Positions 10,476 to 61,972 of a DNA stretch of 64,000 nt are shown here, piece after piece. Both the position numbers and the translations under genes were made by a program. This DNA comes from Lingula anatina. Its lineage: Eukaryota; Animalia; Brachiopoda. The stretch lies in the NCBI GenBank assembly GCA_051362555.1, contig CM120649.1, positions 248,001 to 312,000 of the forward strand, written 5' to 3'. How positions within the stretch are numbered: position 1 is the stretch's first letter; each line of letters starts with the position of its first letter. A model generated the notes under the pieces. That model saw only the letters and a program-made list of their open reading frames with translations, was not told the origin of the DNA and searched no databases.

Positions 10476-11793
10476 TTGTTTTCCTGCTGAAGGTTATTTT
10501 TTATGCAGCAAATAGCCATAGCTGATATTGACATACTGTTTTTATTTACTTGCAGCCTGTACAATAAATACTACTGTGTCAGCAGGAAATCATATGTTGA
10601 TATATACTGTTTTTATTTACTTGCAGCCTGTACAATAAATACTACTGTGTCAGCAGGAAGTCATATGTTGATGAAACATTATTTGGCAATACATCAAGTA
10701 AGTAATTTTTTATCAAATTTATTCTTGTATATTGATTTATTATTAAAATTTACTAAGAATTTTGTTTTTCATTAAATGTGTTTGGAAGAATGAATATGTT
10801 ATAATAGTAAACCGTGAGTAAGTGCATTTCATTTTATGTCACATAAGTTTTATTATTAGTGGTTATTACTTTGGATTGTGTTAGTTGTGCCATATTCATC
10901 AATTGTTCCTGATTGTGACAAGAGCACATACAAGCAATACTCCATGTGAGCCTTCATATCTGTTAGAATTGTGACAAAACCACATTTATACACTTCTCCA
11001 TGTGAGACTTAATTCATATTTGTAAAGTTGTCGTATATTCTGATATTATTATTCTTAAAAATGCCAAACATGTATTTATTTTTTGACAATTTCAGAACCA
11101 GAGCCAGATGACAGGCCATATGACCCCATTTCTATCTCAGGTGACTACACTAGGAGAGCCAAGTCTGCTTTCTTTGACAGTAAGTTCAATATTTTTAATT
11201 TAAAAGAAATCATGTTTAAAATAAACAATTAATTAAGTTCAACTATCAAATATACAATAGAAGATAGACTTCATGCTTAACATTTGACTCAGCTGAAGTT
11301 TTACATATTCATGAAAAAAAATAGCCACATCAATCAGACTTAGTAATTTTATTTTGAACTGAAAACTGAGAACACTTTTGTTATGAAAATAACTTCAGCT
11401 GTTGTCCACTGTCACTTTAAAGCCTTCACAAGTTAATATGATAACTTTTAATGGCTGTCTGTTTTCTCCCCAGGTGAAGACATGTACGCCAGACCAAAGA
11501 GCTACCATTTGAGTCACAGAGTTAGTAACCGTATCCCTGCAGCCACCATGACACGCCCCTACACCTCCATGTCTCAATATTCCTACTACAGTACACCTAT
11601 CAGCTCAGAATATGCTCTCGACAGAGACTCCTTTATCTCTAGTCCATCTATCCCAAAGATTCACATGCCACATTCAGCTTTAAAGAGACAAGTTTCGCGA
11701 GGATGGGAGAATTCTCATTACGTGAGAGAGATGTCAGTGGCCAGTGGTAGAGATTCTGCTAAACTGCTTCAGTGGAATGATATCTCTGCATAG
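8287..11793 (+). CDS. CAP-Gly domain protein (~241 aa) with an SYVDETLFG motif and a Ser/Pro/Arg-rich C-terminus
   Basis: Phase-consistent exons 8287-8428, 8852-8960, 10627-10697, 11096-11179, 11474-11793 (726 nt). The N-terminus NQRVEV..GMVRYKG......[32 protein letters not shown] is a canonical CAP-Gly signature (GKNDG variant GTHDG). Confidence 0.9.
9881..10202 (+). mobile_element. 5'-truncated non-LTR retrotransposon (LINE) 3' end, in a CAP-Gly gene intron
   Basis: The frame reads ICKFRTSSHSLRIEKGRYSNIPRNQRICQYCSNDNVVEDEYHFILICKLYSDFR, the CxxC...EDExHF..xC zinc-knuckle-like C-terminus of LINE ORF2. Confidence 0.85.
10533..10672 (+). repeat. 71-bp tandem duplication that includes a 3' splice site
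   Basis: atactgtttttatttacttgcagcctgtacaataaatactactgtgtcagcaggaa(a/g)tcatatgttgat occurs twice; the AG acceptors end at 10555 and 10626. Confidence 0.9.
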
Positions 11794-13055: not shown

Positions 13056-14172
13056 GGCAGGAGTGCACGCCCTAGTAACGCAAGTCCGCCCGGACACTAA
13101 GTCCTGGGAATGCAAGTCCTAGGGCACGCATTGCTAGGAATGGAAGTCCTAGGACATACGTTACTAGGATTCAATGTTCGTAGGACGAAGACTCCCAAGT
13201 AATGCAAGTCCTGATGAGACGTGCGTTCCTAACATTTTAGTAACGCATGTCCTGTATGGTTAACAGCGAGAAATTACATGAATTAATGGAGGTAGATATA
13301 TACTAGTCTTAAAGATATAATAAACATTTACTTTATTTCATTAAAATGGCATTTTATTTTTAATATTTTACGAGGTTTTTATTTTCCGATAGGCAGTTTA
13401 TATGCATTTTAATAAAGTAACAAAAACAACACGGATTCCATAGTTTTTGCCTCATTTATTTTGTTATGTGTACTTTTCTTCTGGGAAACGCAAATTTTTA
13501 CATGTGTTAATACATCATTTTGGCGTACTCCTCCCTCAGTGCACAATATGTATGAACATGTTTTTTCCCGATATTTTTTTAACAGTATAAGGTACCATCC
13601 AAGGCATCTCTTCTTTTCCCCCTTTGCGATATATGTACATTATTTCATGTCCTTTTCTACTGGGGGCGTACCTTTTGTGTTTTGGCGCTTTGACGCTTAA
13701 AAAAAAAACACAAAAAAATTGTAAGTGTAATGATCAAGGAACACAAATTAGGCATTAAAAACACCGATACACATATTGTTACAATAAATAATACTGGCGG
13801 GTGGAGGGGGGGGGGGGTGAAGATCATGTCAATTGCAGGTCTCGAACCCAGGGGTCTAACAGGGGTCTAACAGTACATACATATATGCCTGTTGTAATTT
13901 AACTTATTATATACCGTGTTTACTCTCAGAAGCATACATGTATGCGCGAAAATAGTTTGCGATGAGTTGCGCCTCCTAAATTATACATCGATTTCTTAAA
14001 ATAAAAAAAGGGTCAGTGATTTTTGCCTATTACTATAAGAAAATGATATTTGGCCCAAAATTCCGTATAGTACACTGTATACTGGCACATGTACCATTGA
14101 GGAATTATCTCATCCCGTGAACTGTCTGGACCAGTTTTGCAATCAGATCATAGATTGCTCAGAATTATAATC

Positions 14173-15456
14173 TTATCCTAGCTCATTGTTTTTGATCGGT
14201 TGAAACACAGGTTGCCCCTGTCTTTCTCGCTGGACTAAGTAACAAATAAAAACTGCAGCAGCAATCAGAACGACAACGCCGATGATGATGCCAACAATGG
14301 CGCCGGTTGATAACTCCCCTGTCGTCTGCTTCATTAACAGAGGGGATTTCTTCGTAAAGAAGGTGCTGTCGGACCCCAGAGTTGTACAACTCAACCGAAA
14401 AAAGTCAATTATTGCTCTCTCCGGATGTTGGCACTTTTTCAGAAGTTCCCCAGTAGTTGCGTTCCGTACCATTTTCCCATCACTTTCCCGATAAGTGTCG
14501 CAGAATTCGCGTCCACCTGGTATGGCGGCTGGGCGACAGTCACTGCTGTTGGTACACGGTTCTCCAGTTCCAGTATAGCTTGCGTCTATCACGTAATATG
14601 GCTCGGTGACGTGTGACTTCCCATCAAAGAGATCACGAAAAGTGGAAGTCTTTGACCATACCCTCTGTAGTGCGATATCATCGCCATACTTTTCACCGTC
14701 AGGACCAGACAGGTTTCTGAATTCTCCCATAATTGCTTCCATCAGGTCAGGATAAAATCCGCGATGTGGAGTGACAAGATAGTTCCCATCATTATCTCCC
14801 CAATTAAATGGACCAAATGCTCCTAACTTAAGTATCTTTGTGTCCAGAACATCTCGGAGAAGCCCGGTGGCGTTGCTTTTGGATGGTACTGGGAACGCTG
14901 CGTAGTCGTCACTTTTGCACGTGCGTACCATAACCAGCTCAAAGGGCATATTGGCCAGGCGTGCTTTCTCATCGAGACCCTTCGTTTGCACCCTCACTAT
15001 CGCTGCATTCAGAGCTCTCGACAAGTCACGGCTTGATTTCTGTGGGGGTGCCCCATGGGGATGGGCGAAGGAGACATCCGGGACCATAAACATAGCACGT
15101 GGAGATATGAGCGTGCTGCTGAACACGTGCACATGCGCAGCATGGTGTTCTTCGGGTAGCCCAGATATCAGTCCTGCAATCAGTTTTCCATCTTTTACCA
15201 ACTTCAGCAAATCGTCAGTAGCCTTGCAACGAATTCCGAAGTATTCCTTCTCTCCGTCACATACGACAACCTGGACGTTGGGGGAAAGAACTGTTTTCAC
15301 AGACTGAAAGTTTGTGAGGGTTAAAAATCCAACCTTTTTATTATCGCCATCTTTGATCGCTTTTTGCAATTCTTCCAGTGTCTCTATGTCGTCCGCTTTT
15401 ACCGACGAAATGTTCAAGAAACTTACAAAACATATGACAAACAATGAAATCCCCAT
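14173..15456 (-). CDS. Type I membrane protein (427 aa) with a circularly permuted PBP type 2 (SBP_bac_3 / iGluR LBD-like) ectodomain, copy A
   Basis: Uninterrupted ORF. Signal peptide (..ISSVKA|DD); IETLEEL..KKVGF, LLKLVKDGKLIAG and DLSRALNAAIVRVQTKG (second-lobe and C-terminal helix motifs); then LRDVLDTKILKLG, GFYPDLMEAI, DLFDGKSH and IDFFRLSC..STFFTKK (first-lobe motifs); TM GAIVGIIIGVVVLIAAAVFICYLV; short tail RERQGQPVFQPI. The ORF call is secure; the fold call is motif inference. Confidence 0.85.
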   Translation of the reverse strand: MGISLFVICFVSFLNISSVKADDIETLEELQKAIKDGDNKKVGFLTLTNFQSVKTVLSPNVQVVVCDGEKEYFGIRCKATDDLLKLVKDGKLIAGLISGLPEEHHAAHVHVFSSTLISPRAMFMVPDVSFAHPHGAPPQKSSRDLSRALNAAIVRVQTKGLDEKARLANMPFELVMVRTCKSDDYAAFPVPSKSNATGLLRDVLDTKILKLGAFGPFNWGDNDGNYLVTPHRGFYPDLMEAIMGEFRNLSGPDGEKYGDDIALQRVWSKTSTFRDLFDGKSHVTEPYYVIDASYTGTGEPCTNSSDCRPAAIPGGREFCDTYRESDGKMVRNATTGELLKKCQHPERAIIDFFRLSCTTLGSDSTFFTKKSPLLMKQTTGELSTGAIVGIIIGVVVLIAAAVFICYLVQRERQGQPVFQPIKNNELG

Positions 15457-16112
15457 TTCTTTTGGTACCGTTGTAACTGCAAAATAATGAAGTTGACCCG
15501 GATATAAATATGGCCTTAACCACCTAATGATACTCGCTTTTAAACATTAACCCGTGATTCATTACGTTCCTCAAGCGTTTGCGTTAGGCACAGTAGGTCA
15601 GGCTTAAGGTAAATAGCGCTACAGCCCAACTACAGTTCGCTAAATTGCCTGATAAAAAGGATCGCCATGTACGGCATGGTATGTAGATTTAAGAATGAGA
15701 ATGAGTTCAATATCACACGTCTAACTTTGGTTTTAAAGTTAAAATGTACCTAGACTCGCTACGAATATCACAAATTCTATACATATATTGTATAATTGCA
15801 GGACTTAATACTTACATATATACTGCATATACATGTAGGCCATAAGGGCTTTAGTGCATGATATGGCATGTTAAAGTACATATTTATAACATGCATTAAT
15901 TATGTAAAGTACGGGGTATACGAAAGTGGTTGCTGGAAACATTTTGAGTATCATAACACTAGAAATATTTTTACCTCCAATATTTCAGTGTCTGTCTAGA
16001 AGCATTTTCATCAGGCAATGTGGCTACTCAGATGAATGGCCTCTATTCAGGGGATATACCCCAAACCTTCTGTTTTATGAAAAGTTTCAGACATAAATTG
16101 TTTTAATTGGCC

Positions 16113-16420
16113 TCTGCATTCTCCAATTATTACTTCCATCAGGAAGCCATGTGGAGTGACCCGATAGTTGCCGTCATTATCCCCCTCGTTAAATCAACCA
16201 AATGCCCCAAATATCCGCCACGTCACGAGTTTTTCGTTTAGCAACCAGATTAATACGACAACCTGGAAGTTGGATGCTAGTACTGTTTTCACAAACTAAA
16301 CGTTTCTATAGCTTAAAGATCCAACGTTTTTATTATCACCATTTTTATTGTTTTTATTCGATTCTTCCAATGTCTCTTTGACAAACCAAATGTGCAAGAA
16401 ACCACAAATGACATCGCCAT
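16113..16420 (-). pseudogene. Degenerate third copy of the permuted-PBP membrane protein gene
   Basis: Conserved start context (aaagaaATGG at 16420), then an early frameshift, ETLEES..KNGDNKNVGSLSYRNV*FVKTVLASNFQVVV, a large internal deletion, then GAFG*FNEGDNDGNYRVTPHGFLMEVIIGECR. Two in-frame stops; no TM region seen. Confidence 0.85.
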
Positions 16421-17222
16421 TTCTTTGGCTTACCTGTAACGTAAATGCGCAATGTAAAGTAACCCGGAAATAAATATGGCGTGTATAGCTTCTATAAACC
16501 ACTTAAAGTAAGTAAATGAAAAATACGCATACTTGACATTGCTGTCACGCACCAGTAAGTGCCGCAAATAATTACCTTACGTACCTGTACATGTCTTCAT
16601 TGTGTAGCACGATTAAATTTGATACACTGATAAGCAAAATAAAAATAGAAAAGTTTGTCGAAATTACACTTTTCCACAATATTCGTTTGTTCAAAGATTT
16701 GTCCCTGGTCACAGCTTATTTCTGGAAAATAATTTTTATTTCCCTATACGGAGCCTACTTTGAGAGTTCATAATGATAAGTGATGTTTTTTACATGTAAT
16801 GACAGCTTTACTCTATCATTTGCCCGGTTCATATTCATTGCCTCACAAGTGACCATCAGGAAATAAAGCTGCATGTGTTGTCGTATCTTCTATTCAAGTG
16901 TTTTATTTACTCCTTCACGTGCATAAAATAGTACTTGCAGGACTTTGTACTGATCAAATACGCCCTAAGATAGCGTTCTAGTACTTTGGAAGTACCGGGT
17001 ACCAGTAAAATTGCCTAAAACAGACACTTGCTGTATGTGTAACGTTGATAACGAGCATAGAAGAAATGTACAGAAAAAGTGTCTGTTTAGATATCTGAAC
17101 AACTCAGACACTATAAAATGTTTCTGCTTCATAAGAACATGTATATACATATATGCCTGCAGTAATTTAACTTATTATATACCGTGTTTACTCTCAGAAG
17201 CATACATGTATGCGCCAAAATA

Positions 17223-18883
17223 CAGACTTGACATTTAATATGGAATATTTCAGTTTCGAAGGTATGCCTAGGTGAAAATGCGTTCTTTTTTTTCACAAAC
17301 ACCGATCTCATATGAGATATGTGAATGAAAAAGTGTGAAGTCAGGTGTGTCGCTACCAATTAACTGAATATCAGGTTTGTTGAGCTGCTGCATTATGTAA
17401 TATGCAGTGATTTAATTGGGTAGTGCTCCTTTGGGCTGGTTAAAGCTTGGCTTTGGCAAAACATGGTTCTGTCAAAAAAGTATCTATATGTCTGCAACGA
17501 CTGCATAGAAGTATTTGAAATTTTGCATGCAAGTGGTCGGGTTTGCATTGTGTAAAATGAGCTATGCAGTGCTTTACGAATTTGTTAATCTGTGGCAGAA
17601 TGGCGCGAAAAAGACATGCACTGCCAGACAGATAATTGCGCCAAACGAAACGGTCCGCACAGTTTTATAGAGTAATGCCAAGACTGATCTACCTACACAG
17701 AGGCCACGCCCAATGTACTGAAATCTCACCACAAGGGTACAGGACCCACTGTCTTTCGGGATATGCTGTTGCAACTAAACAAAAACTACCCTGTCCGATC
17801 ATGTTGGGGGTAAATTGTCACCAAAATGCATTTTTCAAGGCCCTTAGCGAACACCAAACTGGTTTTAGCAGGTTAGAATACCAGACGACCTCCGAGGAAC
17901 CCACTGTCAATAGCTAAACATCGTTGTATGTTTCTCTAACGAATTGGGGACCTTGACTGTTTCTGGGTTGAACACTGAAATCTCGTGGCTTTCTTTATTG
18001 AGGTCAGTTTTCACCTGTACCGCCCAACAGCCAAAACAGAGTTTACAGACATCCAGAAGAGGCCAACGACGAAGCGTGCGCCGCGTATAAAGTGACTAAG
18101 GTCATTAACAGCGTCAGAATTTGGAGTGGATACCACATTGGTGCCAAAACACTAATGGTAGTCATCGACAAAATCCTGAACCAGGCGAAATAAAGAAATA
18201 ATCTGGGAACGATCTGGTTATCATTTGATAGGGGGCAACTTAGGAACAATTTTAGGTTGCACAGTGAGGTTGACAGTTCACACAGAGCACTTTTAATAGC
18301 AGATTAAGTACAGAACCAAGGGAACGAACAGCTACCTTGGTCATCAAAATCGCCATATTTGAACCACATAGACAATATGTGGGTAGACCATTACTCGCCG
18401 AATCAATGACCTACATGTCCTATAACAAAACAGGACCAAATTGGACAGTTTTTGACCGATGCCTGGAATGTTATTCCAGATTGAACTTTAAAAACCTAAC
18501 CCAAGGAATGCCTTGCCACTTGAGAGCGCTGGTAGCAGCCAGAAGAGGTCAAGCGTAACAGCGACCGTTACTGTGACTAGAGACTAACATGAGGGTCCTT
18601 TGTGGAGCGTGTGGCTCTTTTACAGACAATAATTTGAAAAATATGGAGGTCCAAAAAATCTCTTTTAATGGTTGTCGTAAGACATAGAATAGGCAATGTG
18701 TTTTTGTTTGCTTCTCTGGCGAATTCCATTAATGAACTGATATCACAATGACATCAGAGAGATAATTAAAAGATATTATAACACGATTTTAATCCTTATT
18801 TTCATTTATCAGTCAGAAAAATAGGAAAAAAACTGATGAAAAATGATTTGGAAAAAAATATTCCATATTAAATGTCAAGTCTG
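17223..18883 (+). mobile_element. Tc1/mariner DNA transposon (1661 bp) with decayed transposase
   Basis: Perfect 28-bp TIRs cagacttgacatttaatatggaatattt (17223-17250 and 18856-18883), TA duplications at 17221-17222 and 18884-18885, remnants LPWSSKSPYLNHIDNMW (WPSxSPDLNPIENxW motif, ~18331-18382) and RALVAARRGQ. The empty site is visible in the paralogous flank at 13953-13954. Confidence 0.95.
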
Positions 18884-19111
18884 TAGTTCGCGATATGTTG
18901 CGCCTCCTAAATTAAGTATCATGCATCGATTTTTTAAAACAAAAAAGGGTCAGTGATGTTTGCCTTTTACTATAAGAAAATTAGATTCGGTGCAAAAACT
19001 CTGTTTAGTATGCTGGCACGTGTACCATTAAGGAAATGTCTCAACCTGTTAATGGTCTGGACCAGTTTTTGAAATCAGATCATAGAGGATTGTTCAGAAT
19101 TAACCTTATCC

Positions 19112-20389
19112 TTATTCATTGTTTTTGATCGGTTGAAACACAGGTTGCCCCTGTCTTTCTCGCTGGACTAAATAACAAATAAAAACTGCAGCAGCAATCA
19201 GAACGACAACACCGATGATGATGCCAACAATGGCGCCGGTTGATAACTTCCCTGGCGTCTGCTTCATTAACAGAGGGGATTTCTTCGTAAAGAAGGTGCT
19301 GTCTGACCCCAGAGTTGTACAACTCAACCGAAAAAAGTCAATCCTTGCTCTCTCTGGATGTTGGCACTTTTTCAGAAGTTCCCCGGTAGTTGCGTTCCGT
19401 ACCATTTCCCCATCACTTCCCCGATAGGTGTCGCAGACCTCGCGTCCCCCTGGTATGGCGGCCGGGCGACAGTCACTGCTGTTGGTACACGGTTCTCCAG
19501 TTCCAGTATAGCTTGCATCTATCAGGTAATATGGCTCAGTGACGTGTGATTGCCCATCAAAGAGATCACGAAAAGTGGAAGACTTTGACCACACCCTCTC
19601 TAGCGCAATGTCATCGCCATACTTTTCGCCGTCAGGACCAGACAGGTTTCTGAATTCTCCCACAATTGCTTTCATCAGGTCAGGATAAAATCCGCGATGT
19701 GGAGTGACCAGATAGTTGCCATCATTATCTCCCCAATCAAATGGACCAAATGCCCCTAATTTAAGTTTCTTTGTGTCCAGAACATCTCGAAGGATCCCAG
19801 TTGCGTTGCTTTTGGATGGTACTGGAAACGCTTCATAGTCGTCACTTTTGCACGTGCGTACCATAACCAGATCAAAGGGCATATTGGCCAGGCGTGCCTT
19901 CTCATCGAGACCCTTGGTTTGTACCCTCACTATCGCTGCGTTCAGAGCTATCGACAAGTCACGGCTTGATTTTTGTGGGGGTGCCCCATGGGGATGGGCG
20001 AAGGAGACATCCGGGACCATAAACATAGCACGTGGAGATATGAGCATGCTGCTGAACACGTGCACATGCGCAACATGGTGTTCTTCCGGTAGCCCAGATA
20101 TCAGTCCTGCAATCAGTTTTCCATCTTTTACCAACTTCAGCAAATCGTCAGTAGCCTTGCAACGAATTCCGAAGTATTCCTTCTCTCCGTCACATACGAC
20201 AACCTGGACGTTGGAGGGTAGAACTGTTTTCACAGACTGAAAGTTTGTGAGGCTTAAAAATCCAACCTTTTTATTATCGCCAACTTTGATGGCTTTTTGC
20301 AACTCCTCCAGTGTCTCTATGTCGTCTGCTTTTACCAACGAAATGTTCAAGAAACATACAAAACATATGACAAACAAAGAAATCCCCAT
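19112..20389 (-). CDS. Type I membrane protein (425 aa) with a circularly permuted PBP type 2 ectodomain, copy B
   Basis: Uninterrupted ORF with ~26 amino-acid differences from copy A (~94% identical by manual count) and the same architecture. Flanks are also homologous (approx. 13875-15622 vs 17147-20593 excluding the Tc1). Confidence 0.85.
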   Translation of the reverse strand: MGISLFVICFVCFLNISLVKADDIETLEELQKAIKVGDNKKVGFLSLTNFQSVKTVLPSNVQVVVCDGEKEYFGIRCKATDDLLKLVKDGKLIAGLISGLPEEHHVAHVHVFSSMLISPRAMFMVPDVSFAHPHGAPPQKSSRDLSIALNAAIVRVQTKGLDEKARLANMPFDLVMVRTCKSDDYEAFPVPSKSNATGILRDVLDTKKLKLGAFGPFDWGDNDGNYLVTPHRGFYPDLMKAIVGEFRNLSGPDGEKYGDDIALERVWSKSSTFRDLFDGQSHVTEPYYLIDASYTGTGEPCTNSSDCRPAAIPGGREVCDTYRGSDGEMVRNATTGELLKKCQHPERARIDFFRLSCTTLGSDSTFFTKKSPLLMKQTPGKLSTGAIVGIIIGVVVLIAAAVFICYLVQRERQGQPVFQPIKNNE

Positions 20390-21526
20390 TTCTTTTGGTA
20401 TCCCCGTTCAGTACCGTTGTAACTGCAAAATAATAAAGTTGACCCGGATACAAATATGGCCTACATCTACCCACCTAATGATACTCTATAAAACTGTCGC
20501 ATAAGCGCTTTTAACTTTTAACCCATGATTTATAGCGTTACTCAAGCGTATACGTAAGACACAGTAGGTCAGCCTAAAGCTAAAAAGCGCTACACGATTG
20601 CAGGTTATTTGTGGTGGCATTCTTATACCAAGAAGTGTCAGCCCTTCACTTTGCTAAATTGCTTTAAGTAATTGCAATTTATAAACACACGTGTTAACTG
20701 TGGTTATTTACACCAATTATCTCCCTCCCAATAAAAGAGGAAACGACGCACTTTGGGCCACACTAAAGCATTATGCATTACTGTTAAATTCACCAAACTA
20801 TATTGTGAATTGTGATACTTCCATTTCCGCAATGGAGGGAGAGGCGGGGGGTTCGTGGTACAGATCTTAGTATCCACTCTTTTCTACATTTTATATTTGT
20901 ATACACTACTTTAATGTTTGTTTGGATATATATCTAGATAATCAATATTTAATTAGACGATAATTATACGGTATTACATTATTTTGGTGAAATCACCTGT
21001 TAGAGTTGTGCTCAAGCAAATGTGATTTTAACTGACTAAAATCAGTCGTTTTTCAGGCTCCTGTAAATATAAATGTAATTGTGTAATTCGCTCTTTGATA
21101 ATCGATACCTTATAGGCCTATAACTGTCATTTAGAAAAACAATTTCCTTAAGATGGAAATTTGGAATGACATATTTAATTTTTTTCTTGGAAAATGTATA
21201 AATTTAGTAAAAACAGTGTATGAGAACTTAAACCCAGTTTTAAATACGTAAATCATATAAACAAAAAAGTTGAACAACAGGCGCTTGAACCGCGTTTGCG
21301 CAATCACAAAATGTTAACACCCTTATCTTCTTGTATGAAAGGGTTGTTGCACCGTTACCAATGTAGTTAGTTGTTAATAATGTGAACAACGTAACACGTG
21401 ATTGCAGTCAATTACACATTGAAAAGTCCAGCAGTTAATCCGGGTATCGTTGTTCGATAGAGAGGCGTGTGCCGCGACGTGATGTCGATCTTGGGCGGCA
21501 TTCACAAACAGAGTCGATCCGCGGAT

Positions 21527-54000: not shown

Positions 54001-56341
54001 CACGGTGGATGTCTTAACTACATCAGTTACTGCCGATAATCTCGTCAGCCTAGCAAGCAGACTGCTTGTCTAAAACGAGTTACCGCCAAAAACCCTTTGG
54101 GACTTGCCATTCAAAGTATAACACAATGAAATTAACGTAACATTAAAAGGTTTCACGGTTAGTGTCTATGAGAGGTGATGACACAGTGGCTGAAATCACG
54201 ACTTGGTGTTACCTCACAAGTGACTTGAAGTCGTGGGCTAAATTGAGTTAAGTCTGCTAAACTTGGGAGTCAGACAAAATAAAGGCGACATTGTGGTATC
54301 GTTCTTTAAGTGCTCCAAAAGAAATGGATCCCCAACATATGTTGTTGATATATATACCTAGGTATGATACCGCTACAAATGTGAGATACATTAACTGTCC
54401 CGGCAATTAAGTTCTGTTGTATTGACTTGGTCTAAAGAGCATTAAAAAGAGGAAAACAGCATTTCATATTTTGTTGTTAAACTTACTTTGGCTCAGATTC
54501 TTAACTCGCTTACCTAACCTAAGAAAAACTTTAGACAAGAATTTGGCTCCTGCAGAATTATGCCTCTACAAACATACGAGTATCCACTCAACCTTACACT
54601 TGTACTTAATCAGGCTTGGTGAATATAAAGATTGTCATAAGAAAATTCAGAAATATATTTGTTTCTGTTAACAAAGTAAGTTCCCTCTCTCACACACTGG
54701 TAACCCCGACAAACGTCATCAGTTTCCATACGGGTTTGCAGCTGTATAGAGCAGACAACGCTCTTAGAAATGCCTCGTGCCTAGGAACGGCTCACACGCG
54801 AGGTTCCTTTTGAGATTCGTTTACCCAACTGCTAACCTCAGGCAAAAACACTAATCGTATTTTATGTGCACAAGAATCTGTTCAATGTACTCTCTGGTTC
54901 TGAGTCTGTCTCATCCCTGCTGTTCTTGAAGGAAACACAGGTTAGTGCAGTGGTTGGGACTGAAATTTTTAGGCATAAATATTCCAAATAGATATAAAAA
55001 AGATGTACCATTAAGTAAGCCGACGGGAACAGCATTGCTCTGTCCTTTTTTCATAAAAGAGATCGGATGTGGGTTTCAAAACAGTCTGCTAAGAAATCAA
55101 ATCAACAGTTTTTCTTGAGAAAGAACTTACTCGTAGTTTATAGTGTCTTTTAAGGAGGGAATGAACATTTATGCAGATATTAAGGGATGTCCAGCTGGTA
55201 TGAGATTGTTTTTGGTGGTATCCCAAAGGTTTGGAGACAAAGGAGCCAATGGGACTGTTTCAGTGAGCAAAGTGCATCGAAAAAAAAAAAGAAATAAAAA
55301 CATCCCAATGTTGATAAAAAGTTAATCTTTGTAACAAAGAGACGAAAGCTATGGCGTTTCACCACCTCCATACCAGAGACATCGAGGAACATATTTCACA
55401 ATTTCGTAATGGCCACCTGTAATAATTCCTTGTCTGTCATCAGTTTTAAGGCTAGTTTATTTTCATTACCATCTTTGCACCGATAATTCAGTTGCTTCTT
55501 GTCTTTTCAGGTAAAACACAGAAGGCGATATAAGTGCCTGTCGGAGGGAGATCTTATAGTTTTTGTAACAAAGTCATTTTTTATTTCCAGATATAACGAA
55601 CACAAAAGTACAGTATGCAGTGGAATAATCTGGTAATACCTATAGTATGTTGTTTGATCGCCATCGTAACAAGGTTTGTACAATACGGCTTTCATTCATT
55701 TTCCTTAACATTTGGTTATATTTTTTCTGTTTAAATTCCGGCAGTTCTTCTTCCGTCAGTTAAATACAATGTTTGAATTATACCACTGAGTAAGCATTAA
55801 AATGGTGGTGAACTTTGATTAAACCCTCGTAAGTCTACATTTAGTGGCCATTAAGTTCAAGGTAGCTATACTGAAAGTGCAGTTATTATGGCAAAATATT
55901 TATTAAATATATCTTATTAAAAACACACGTGTGTCTTATCACGCTAGCTGTAGCACCTCGGGTACGCAGCACCTTTCTCTTAGGCTATTTCATCATCATC
56001 ACATATGATCCAACATTACGTAGGACGAGCTCCTACATGTATTTTCTTCAGTAGGCTTTTAGAGCTAATTATCAAGTGCTTAGCTATACAAAACGGAGTA
56101 ATAATCAAAGTATAGCACACTGCATGTCCTAAAACAGCTGAGTGATTTAAAGGTACATTTTATTATATTTCTAGCAACGATCATGTAAGTTTACGGGTTC
56201 CGGGGGGATGTGAATTGAATATTACTGCCCTGTGTAGTTTAATTCCCATAAAAGTGTTTCGGTATCCAGTATACACAGACCTTGCAATAATTAAAATAAG
56301 GCTCTTCAGTAACATCATCATTATTATTATTATTATTACAG

Positions 56342-57035
56342 AGTAAACAGTCTTGATGACTCCAAAAAGAAGGTAGTAGAAAGACGTGACCTGGATACTC
56401 TGGGGTCGTCATTGCTCCGGAAACGCACTATGCTGGATACTGTGGGCAGTGACCTTCTGAAGAAGAGCTCAGAGGACAAGAGGACAGTGGACACCCTGGA
56501 CTCTAGCTTCCTAAGGAAACGCATGCTAGATTCCCTAGGAAGTAACCTCCTTCGTAAAAGGATGTTGGATTCTCTCGGCAGCAACCTCCTCCGAAAGCGC
56601 ATGCTTGATACCCTCGGGAGCGCGTTCATTAAGAAGTCTATTCCAAACCACGGTGACGTTGAGATGTTCGACGAACGCGCCCTTGATGAAATCGCCAGTA
56701 ACTTAATCGGACGCCGAGCCCTTGACGAGATTGCCTCCAGCATGTTTGGACGCCGAGCTTTGGACGAGATAGCAAGCTCGATGTTTGGTCGGGAGGTTAA
56801 GGACCTGAAGCCCAGTCAGCGACGCGAGTTGGACGAAATCGCCAGCAGGATGTTTGGACGACGTGCGTTAGACGAGATTGCTTCGAGTATGTTTGGACGA
56901 GCGTTGGATGAAATCGCGTCAAGTATGTTTGGACGGGAAGCGGGAAAGAACAGAAAGCAGGAAGATGAAGAAGGATTCAAAGCAACCCGTAATCGTCTGC
57001 AACAGACGCCACCAATGGAAGAGGAACGCAGCTAG
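56342..57035 (+). CDS. Main exon of a LASGLVamide-like (pedal peptide/orcokinin-type) neuropeptide precursor (~253 aa with the 40337 exon)
   Basis: Acceptor ttacag at 56341. Six basic-site-flanked non-amidated peptides (DLDTLGSSLL, TMLDTVGSDLL, TVDTLDSSFL, MLDSLGSNLL x2, MLDTLGSAFI) and six Gly-extended peptides (ALDEIASNLI-G, ALDEIASSMF-G x4, ELDEIASRMF-G). AATAAA at 57191. Confidence 0.9.
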
Positions 57036-61213: not shown

Positions 61214-61972
61214 CTAAACATCACTATAGGCCAGTTCCTCGTCTGGTTCAGGCGTTATAAACTCTTTCACCACGGCAACCGGGATACGGAACGCCACCCG
61301 TCTCTTTTCTTTCTTGGATGATTCAGCAGCGTTTTTCTCATGGGATATGTCATGGGACCGGACCGTCTTGTCCCAGTTGAGTTTGTTCCGTTGGTCCAGA
61401 ACCTCAATGGGCTCATAGTCTGTCCCATGGCGCGCCATACCAGTGCCCGCATGAAGGCGCCCGGACCTGTGAGAAACCAGAATTCCATGGCGATGTCGAC
61501 CTCCCCCACAACCGTCTGCTTTATTCTCCGCAGGAGGTCCATCGACAGTTGAGAGCTGGCTATTAAAAACATCGTTGGGATTCACAGGCTTAATGCGCGA
61601 GTGAATCGGTGAAATGTAGAAACTGCACTGTCTTTCGCGCATGCGCTGTTTCCGCGTTGACCACGTGGCTGGATCGCTCTCCTCCGACTGGTCAGAACGC
61701 TTCCCCCATATTTTCTCCTTTTCTTTCTCGCGCAGAGTATGGACGTCGTATTTGCCGGAAAAACTCATCTTTTTGAGTCTGTTAATGGCAAACATCATAT
61801 TATCGTGCTCCTGTTGAATAAGACTCTGTCTCATTTTTCCGACGGAGTCGAGGTACTCCTTTTGGCGTTCGTGGACTCGGTTGTAAGCATCTAACCAGTC
61901 CGGTTGCCGAGTACGAATGGTCTCGTAACGGTCATGTGCGGGTACGGGGGTCTTAGGCCGTTTTGTTGCCAT
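61214..61972 (-). CDS. Uncharacterised basic 252-aa protein; single coding exon
   Basis: Long ORF that is GC-richer than its flanks, a helical/coiled-coil-like N-terminal third, and a strong upstream acceptor tttctttcag at 62067-62068 (5'UTR intron). No recognisable family. Confidence 0.7.
   Translation of the reverse strand: MATKRPKTPVPAHDRYETIRTRQPDWLDAYNRVHERQKEYLDSVGKMRQSLIQQEHDNMMFAINRLKKMSFSGKYDVHTLREKEKEKIWGKRSDQSEESDPATWSTRKQRMRERQCSFYISPIHSRIKPVNPNDVFNSQLSTVDGPPAENKADGCGGGRHRHGILVSHRSGRLHAGTGMARHGTDYEPIEVLDQRNKLNWDKTVRSHDISHEKNAAESSKKEKRRVAFRIPVAVVKEFITPEPDEELAYSDV

Follow-up and report, generated by a model that had tools for sequence, protein, structure and literature searches.

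A 64,000-nt stretch of the Lingula anatina genome (positions 248,001–312,000 of CM120649.1, assembly GCA_051362555.1; referred to here as the window) contains two tandem genes, copies A and B. Their products are almost certainly circularly permuted family-3 (type II) solute-binding proteins, in which the two lobes (S1 and S2) and the C-terminal helix follow one another as S2-helix-S1 in place of the canonical S1-S2-helix. The chain contains no ion channel pore. Topologically, the proteins are a variant of the family-3 type. The family to which they belong, apparently undescribed, extends across eukaryotes and, judged by alignment, is homologous to the malaria antigen PfVFT1 over both lobes, including the helix-to-S1 junction, and is not animal-specific.

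The two intact open reading frames (ORFs) recognized in the first-pass annotation of this DNA were found again on the minus strand. The translations contain every motif listed in that annotation, with one exception: RIDFFRLSC is confined to copy B, copy A having IIDFFRLSC. The genes and the parts of the copy A protein are as follows (aa, amino acids; TM, transmembrane).

14173..15456, minus strand: copy A, intact intronless ORF of 427 aa (ORF translation, structure model, read coverage)
19112..20389, minus strand: copy B, intact intronless ORF of 425 aa (ORF translation); Arg349 kept, codon at 19343–19345
15394..15456, minus strand: predicted signal peptide of copy A, approximately residues 1–21 (hydropathy; helix at 4–14 in the model)
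15082..15393, minus strand: block B, S2-like lobe, residues 22–125, which in canonical family-3 proteins is C-terminal (profile and alignment matches)
14881..15036, minus strand: block H, residues 141–192, canonical C-terminal helix DLSRALNAAIVRVQTKG plus the linker joining the old C- and N-termini; invariant Cys180 and Pro191
14341..14880, minus strand: block A, S1-like lobe plus first hinge strand, residues 193–372; invariant W219, G224, G233, R265, E285-P286-Y287 and C357
14416..14571, minus strand: four-cysteine insert, approximately residues 296–347, marking a sub-clade with Owenia, rotifers, Rigifila and Mastigamoeba
14233..14307, minus strand: single TM helix of copy A, approximately residues 384–408 (hydropathy and structure model)
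14173..14232, minus strand: predicted cytoplasmic tail of 19 aa with the family motif [RKH]ExxGxPxF, then xx-hydrophobic (RERQGQPVFQPI)

Hydropathy analysis gave peaks at residues 1–21 and 378–412 and no other TM-like segment past the signal peptide, and the structure model of copy A has a TM helix at residues 384–412. The signal peptide, single TM helix and tail of less than 20 aa proposed earlier therefore agree with the sequence, as does the absence of a pore loop, M3 and M4. The layout of ionotropic glutamate receptors (iGluRs; S1, M1-pore-M3, S2, M4) is not that of the window protein, which has one hydrophobic segment after the signal peptide, the reverse order of lobes and no splice joints in the reads over the ORF.

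Curated Pfam and NCBIfam scans of both ORFs yielded nothing over cut-off, SBP_bac_3 (PF00497) included. The closest protein record, L. anatina LOC106172641 (98%), is entered at NCBI as “uncharacterized protein” and is followed by two Owenia fusiformis proteins (54% and 61%), in line with the earlier statement that no described animal family covers these genes. When 30 family members were scanned with PF00497, a single one matched (E 0.042), with its middle helix placed on the C-terminal end of the model; the top ESM Atlas clusters were SBP_bac_3 (0.86 and 0.91). The sole clear sequence match in the PDB was Plasmodium PfVFT1 (PF3D7_0606800, PDB 5JKQ), to which the query aligns in swapped order (query 193–290 to chain 62–153, and query 17–119 to chain 182–275). 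A profile search against PfVFT1 reached E 2.5e-26, its two stretches (8.2e-16 and 2.2e-7) again being swapped. PfVFT1 is itself circularly permuted relative to canonical family-3 proteins, with the C-terminal helix first.

Comparison with seven E. coli family-3 proteins, GlnH among them, which served as the reference alignment, revealed that residues 21–174 align with GlnH 120–246, i.e. with its C-half (probability 89.8, E 1.8e-6). The S2-before-S1 permutation postulated in the first-pass annotation is thus borne out, and the GlnH alignment also supports its placement of the permutation point at the iGluR S1/S2 boundary. The expectation that each half on its own would match family-3 proteins was satisfied for one half: the N-half scored 41.6 against the seven proteins (at most 18.4 for 40 column shuffles and 13.5 when reversed), whereas the C-half alone scored 19.3, under its reversed control (22.8), and was not significant. 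Assignment of the C-half therefore rests on PfVFT1 and on relatives with the order helix-S1-S2, which align to GlnH uninterrupted through the hinge (132 columns, E 1e-4). The alignment of window-order proteins (A1, 30 rows) matches that of the helix-S1-S2 proteins (A3) with E 5.6e-60, and the two types are, on these alignments, close kin.

The structure models have the two-lobed type II fold predicted earlier, including its two hinge strands, in agreement with the match between the A1 and A3 alignments. The model of the window protein (predicted local distance difference test, pLDDT, 88.6) has long strands at 109–121 and 360–369, corresponding to the hinge strands, and matches PfVFT1 with Z 15.6–15.8. 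The model of P0075, a helix-S1-S2 relative (pLDDT 87.0), matches PfVFT1 with Z 23.5 (root-mean-square deviation 4.1, 258 aligned), family-3 structures with Z 13–15.5 over S1-S2 (e.g. 6DET, model 77–292 to chain 10–212) and iGluR ligand-binding domains with Z 11–14.5. Foldseek returned 9 matches at E≤0.001 for the window model versus at least 500 for P0075, as expected since an order-dependent aligner penalizes a permutant. When structures were searched with the window model, PfVFT1 alone stood out, and family-3 proteins were not among the 50 matches listed. In-order matches of this model to LysR effector domains and OpuAC (Z of about 9) could hint at a normal block order; this was rejected in favour of pseudo-symmetry of the two lobes, because sequence homology and the P0075 model fix the swap.

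Family-3 binding proteins of ATP-binding cassette (ABC) transporters (SBP_bac_3; GlnH, HisJ, ArgT, ArtJ, GltI, TcyJ) thus share with the window protein its fold and recognizable blocks. They differ in block order, and the window protein differs from them in its C-terminal TM helix and tail and in being a eukaryotic protein with no cognate ABC permease known. PfVFT1 is a clear homolog that likewise has joined old termini and the helix ahead of S1. Its order, unlike that of the window protein, is helix-S1-S2, collinear with A3 over 11–271, and it is reported to cluster with glycosylphosphatidylinositol (GPI)-anchored proteins; it is possibly surface-localized (excerpts of PMC13199436).

The set of relatives comprised 194 proteins, obtained partly from one search with 150 of 200 matches listed. 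Among them were 99 single S2-helix-S1 units, 18 single helix-S1-S2 units, 13 and 4 tandems of each, respectively, and 60 partial sequences; these counts are biased, since the query was S2-first. Single units in canonical order were absent from the 194. Organism names were looked up for 26 proteins, and predatory protists may carry prey transcripts. The named animals with the window order are Lingula, Owenia and the bdelloid rotifers Adineta steineri and Didymodactylos carnosus; the other named members of this type are Rigifila ramosa, Mastigamoeba balamuthi, the choanoflagellate Didymoeca costata, two dinoflagellates, Haptolina and Amorphochlora. The PfVFT1 order was found in Chloroparvula, Pyramimonas, Blastocystis and Cafeteria, the UniRef label of the Cafeteria protein being family-3 domain protein. 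Close relatives were not detected by insensitive pattern scans of viral, metagenome and prokaryote genome contigs, nor by the same kind of insensitive scan in any of five marine group II genomes. No description of this eukaryotic family was found in the literature searched, which takes in only a minority of subscription journals, and the family is apparently undescribed.

In two rotifer gene models, P0211 (Adineta) and P0212 (Didymodactylos), the binding protein is combined with a t-SNARE (syntaxin-like) part. These are likely to be merged neighbours with conserved synteny and not a true fusion, since P0212 has an apparent signal peptide of its own after the syntaxin anchor.

The iGluR pore is inserted at the hinge between S1 and S2. 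The window protein shares its fold and the position of its chain break with iGluR ligand-binding domains (GluR0, GLR3.4, AvGluR1, NMDA and kainate receptors), and it might in principle be a remnant of neighbouring iGluR genes, the S2 of one fused to the S1-M1 of the next. The chain does begin and end at the hinge of pore insertion (according to the GlnH alignment), and iGluR domains match the P0075 model with the Z scores given above. However, no iGluR appeared among the 40 and 34 named matches listed or among the PDB sequence matches, the TM helix and tail are common to both permutants, and ABC-transporter binding proteins score equally or higher by structure. The S1-S2 hinge of the helix-S1-S2 relatives is only 4–10 residues long in 10 of the 11 measured and 18 residues in the remaining one, and relatives of either permutant have no pore. 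An origin from iGluR remnants is therefore extremely unlikely, being largely refuted by the relatives, the hinge lengths and the structure scores. The “iGluR-like” lineage named in the first-pass annotation does not hold either: the closest kin are pore-less eukaryotic proteins, PfVFT1 included, many with an uninterrupted bacterial-type S1-S2 hinge, and iGluR domains are structurally no closer than ABC-transporter binding proteins. The window protein, with no M1-P-M3-M4 and the reverse order, is not their nearest kin, and nothing points to descent from iGluRs.

The new junction between the old C-terminal helix and the old first strand, with its invariant cysteine, is common to both permutant types, and each type retains one short canonical junction (the S2-helix link of the window type has a median of 4 residues). 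We infer that both arose by duplication followed by cutting: a precursor with joined old C- and N-termini would have been duplicated head to tail and then cut at different sites, giving S2-helix-S1 (the window gene) or helix-S1-S2 (the PfVFT1 type). A tandem precursor cut at two sites would explain both the shared new junction and the single short canonical junction of each type. In the simplest reading, the cut of the window type fell at the iGluR-boundary hinge because this hinge likely tolerates opening.

Permuted family-3 proteins with the same helix-to-S1 order were detected in 7 of 401 Thermoplasmatota genomes, the family profile matching just that part. In these proteins (L122, L125–L131) the old C-terminal helix again runs into the old N-terminal strand, at a comparable distance (46–48 versus 47–53 residues), but the chain is opened within lobe A, a third cut site, the anchor is N-terminal and lipoprotein-like, and the ORFs are mostly of about 1000 residues. 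They matched the family profile no better than E. coli proteins did (38.0 versus 41.0), and the linker alone was not significant (score 8.7, equalled by 28 of 30 shuffles). An archaeal origin of the linker or the permutation is accordingly a lead only, and an unproven one.

How the genes reached animals is a nearly even choice between transfer into spiralians and ancient descent with loss elsewhere. The genes are intronless and the record among animals is spiralian-only, which suggests transfer; the neighbours are amorphean and CRuMs, which suggests descent with loss. In a tree of 27 hand-chosen rows, the cysteine-insert sub-clade (support 100/97) holds Lingula with Owenia (98/95), the rotifer group, and Rigifila and Mastigamoeba with further rows (83/79). 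A weak branch (79/60) has all four named animals on the same side; the choanoflagellate is placed outside.

In GlnH, Arg97 is the carboxylate-binding residue and Asp179 the amine-binding one. Position 349 of the window protein aligns with Arg97, which is thus a shared feature, and is Arg in copy B, in Owenia and in 26 of the 30 rows of A1; among 152 pattern matches, 113 have Arg and 26 have Lys there, and 4 of the remainder are off-target. The position of Asp179 is occupied by Ser98; 24 of the 30 rows have Ser here and 4 have Thr. Residues E285-P286-Y287, W219, Cys180 and Cys357 are each conserved in 30/30 rows and N49 in 29/30, and a Cys180–Cys357 disulfide is predicted, which would staple the new linker to the hinge strand. 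The cleft is likely to be retained, as far as alignment can tell. Since the Arg is kept and the Asp is replaced by Ser, the textbook alpha-amino-acid grip probably is not; the ligand may be a small, polar carboxylate, betaine-like zwitterion or oxyanion. The earlier description of an amino-acid or small-ligand receptor or scavenger therefore gives the likeliest function, with the canonical amino-acid grip only half preserved.

Replacement of the amine-binding Asp, the Ile349 shared by copy A and the NCBI allele, and the large cysteine insert adjoining the Arg site might also suggest that the protein, or at least copy A, has lost small-ligand binding and become a surface adhesion or scaffold protein. 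Retention of the Arg by copy B, Owenia and most relatives, the invariant polar cleft-side residues on both lobes and the low ratio of nonsynonymous to synonymous divergence between the copies (dN/dS 0.18) make this distinctly unlikely. An ecto-enzyme on the solute-binding fold, resembling cyclohexadienyl dehydratase and with Glu285 as catalytic residue, is less likely still. E285 is present in 30/30 rows, AncCDT-1 (5T0W) is second only to PfVFT1 in the Foldseek results with the model of the relative, and several dehydratases are listed there, but the dehydratase matches tie with those of ordinary binding proteins (E 8e-10 versus 2e-9).

The tail motif was found in 72 of the 194 relatives; position F+3 was hydrophobic in 59 of 67. 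The TM helix together with the motif occurs in 48 of the 99 S2-first singles, in 7 of the 18 helix-S1-S2 singles and in none of 17 tandems. A C-terminal hydrophobic stretch ending at most 5 residues from the C-terminus, GPI-signal-like by hydropathy, is present in 18 of 35 tandem or S1-S2 relatives. Such tail-less anchoring, and a tail of less than 20 aa, favour capture over direct signalling. The window protein is, on a narrow balance, probably a stand-alone tethered scavenger of a small polar ligand. It would sit on the cell surface through its one C-terminal helix (a predicted topology), its clamshell would shut around a small polar solute bearing a carboxylate, and the captured solute would be held for a nearby transporter or taken in by endocytosis. 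This proposed mode, in which solute is concentrated for transporters or endocytosis at a surface tether, resembles that of two diatom binding proteins, ZCRP-B and ISIP2a, which span the membrane once and are proposed to concentrate metals at the cell surface (excerpts of PMC9010474); their folds (NikA-like and transferrin-like) and metal ligands are different, and the analogy is functional only.

Several points weigh against the scavenger interpretation. Position 349 is Ile in copy A and the NCBI allele alike, and the aromatic and Asp contacts of GlnH are not retained, so that the ligand class is a guess; the cleft-side placement of residues was taken from the alignment. The trafficking role of the tail motif is suggested by its appearance only, and the excerpts of PMC7972479 give no information on it. 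PfVFT1, the only studied member, differs in having neither the Arg nor the conserved cysteines, and its function is unknown (excerpts of PMC13199436). The bias of the architecture counts towards the S2-first order is to be added to these.

A chemosensory or nutrient-sensing co-receptor, relaying binding to a partner membrane protein or a tail-binding adaptor, is rather unlikely, although the juxtamembrane motif is kept in both permutants and in distant eukaryotes (the 72 relatives mentioned above). Parasites lacking PfVFT1 need 52 h instead of 48 h for a cycle (excerpts of PMC13199436), and the pore-less Schistosoma glutamate-binding protein SmGBP, of the metabotropic glutamate receptor type, is a surface precedent (PMC3206071). 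On the other hand, the 19-aa tail has no catalytic domain, many relatives have a GPI-like ending and no tail, and no partner gene was seen nearby in the ORF list of the window.

A broader interpretation, possible though on balance doubtful, is that these proteins belong to an ancient, overlooked class of eukaryotic stand-alone solute-capture receptors, with two permutations and living tandems and with archaeal-type ancestry, which would have been kept in a few spiralians for dissolved organic solutes and of which PfVFT1 would be the parasite member. Soft-bodied aquatic invertebrates take up dissolved organic solutes, and the scavenger, if it is one, would be a candidate for high-affinity uptake in these animals. 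If the class is real, a ligand identified in a free-living species would also explain the vaccine antigen PfVFT1. Whatever the ligand, this orphan antigen gains a family with free-living, tractable members, in which the ligand can be sought by comparison. The window genes place a stand-alone bacterial-type solute-binding protein on the animal cell surface (a predicted location), outside the glutamate receptors and transferrins. They also offer a clear-cut example from nature of permutation through duplication: there are three block orders, two of which occur as tandems too, and a single shared membrane anchor. This is tempered by the recurrence of circularly permuted binding proteins in prokaryotes.

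Copies A and B share 93.7% protein identity. Of their 1275 bases 67 differ, which affects 26 codons with replacement and 38 silently; dN is 0.028 and dS 0.152, and the genes are under purifying selection. The duplicated segment comprises 13953–15623 and 18884–20594 (89.7% alike). Two further features lie between the copies.

16113..16412, minus strand: decayed third copy, in pieces matching residues 7–65 and 199–247, with stops and a large internal deletion
17218..18888, no strand assigned: element of 1.67 kb with 33-nt terminal inverted repeats (97% complementary), inserted in the 3′ flank of copy B but not part of that gene

The ends of this element begin with TACAG, by which we take it to be Tc1/mariner-like; it has no intact ORF, and many diverged transcripts map onto it.

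The tandem genes are transcribed. At the copy A locus, three oligo-dT runs gave 180, 135 and 153 reads over 14104 to approximately 15460 with zero splice joints, and a fourth run gave 2 reads. RNA reads over both ORFs had a single direction in the three runs that behaved as stranded (X1, X4 and X5), at low depth; since this direction is opposite to that of a spliced plus-strand gene at 11179–11474, the RNA is minus-strand. The reads are mostly 90–95% alike, and therefore come from diverged individuals and are not assignable to either copy. In the 3′ flank of copy A, reads of three runs join 13759 to 14120 with no splice-site ends, and 13760–14119 is likely a polymorphic 360-base insertion or deletion.

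Elsewhere in the window, 11179–11793 (plus strand) is an expressed spliced gene fragment with a GT..AG intron of 294 bases, lying on the opposite strand to copies A and B, and 61214–61972 (plus strand) is an ORF of 252 aa with no Pfam match over cut-off. Contamination was considered and ruled out: the copies share their flanks with AT-rich DNA carrying the spliced gene and a neuropeptide precursor, and the Owenia homologs lie on contigs of 35–39 Mb. The neuropeptide precursor exon (56340–57035, plus strand), which supports an animal origin of the window, encodes six (A/E)LDEIAS..G peptide repeats, mostly flanked by basic sites, and several MLD(S/T)LGS.. repeats ahead of RKR.

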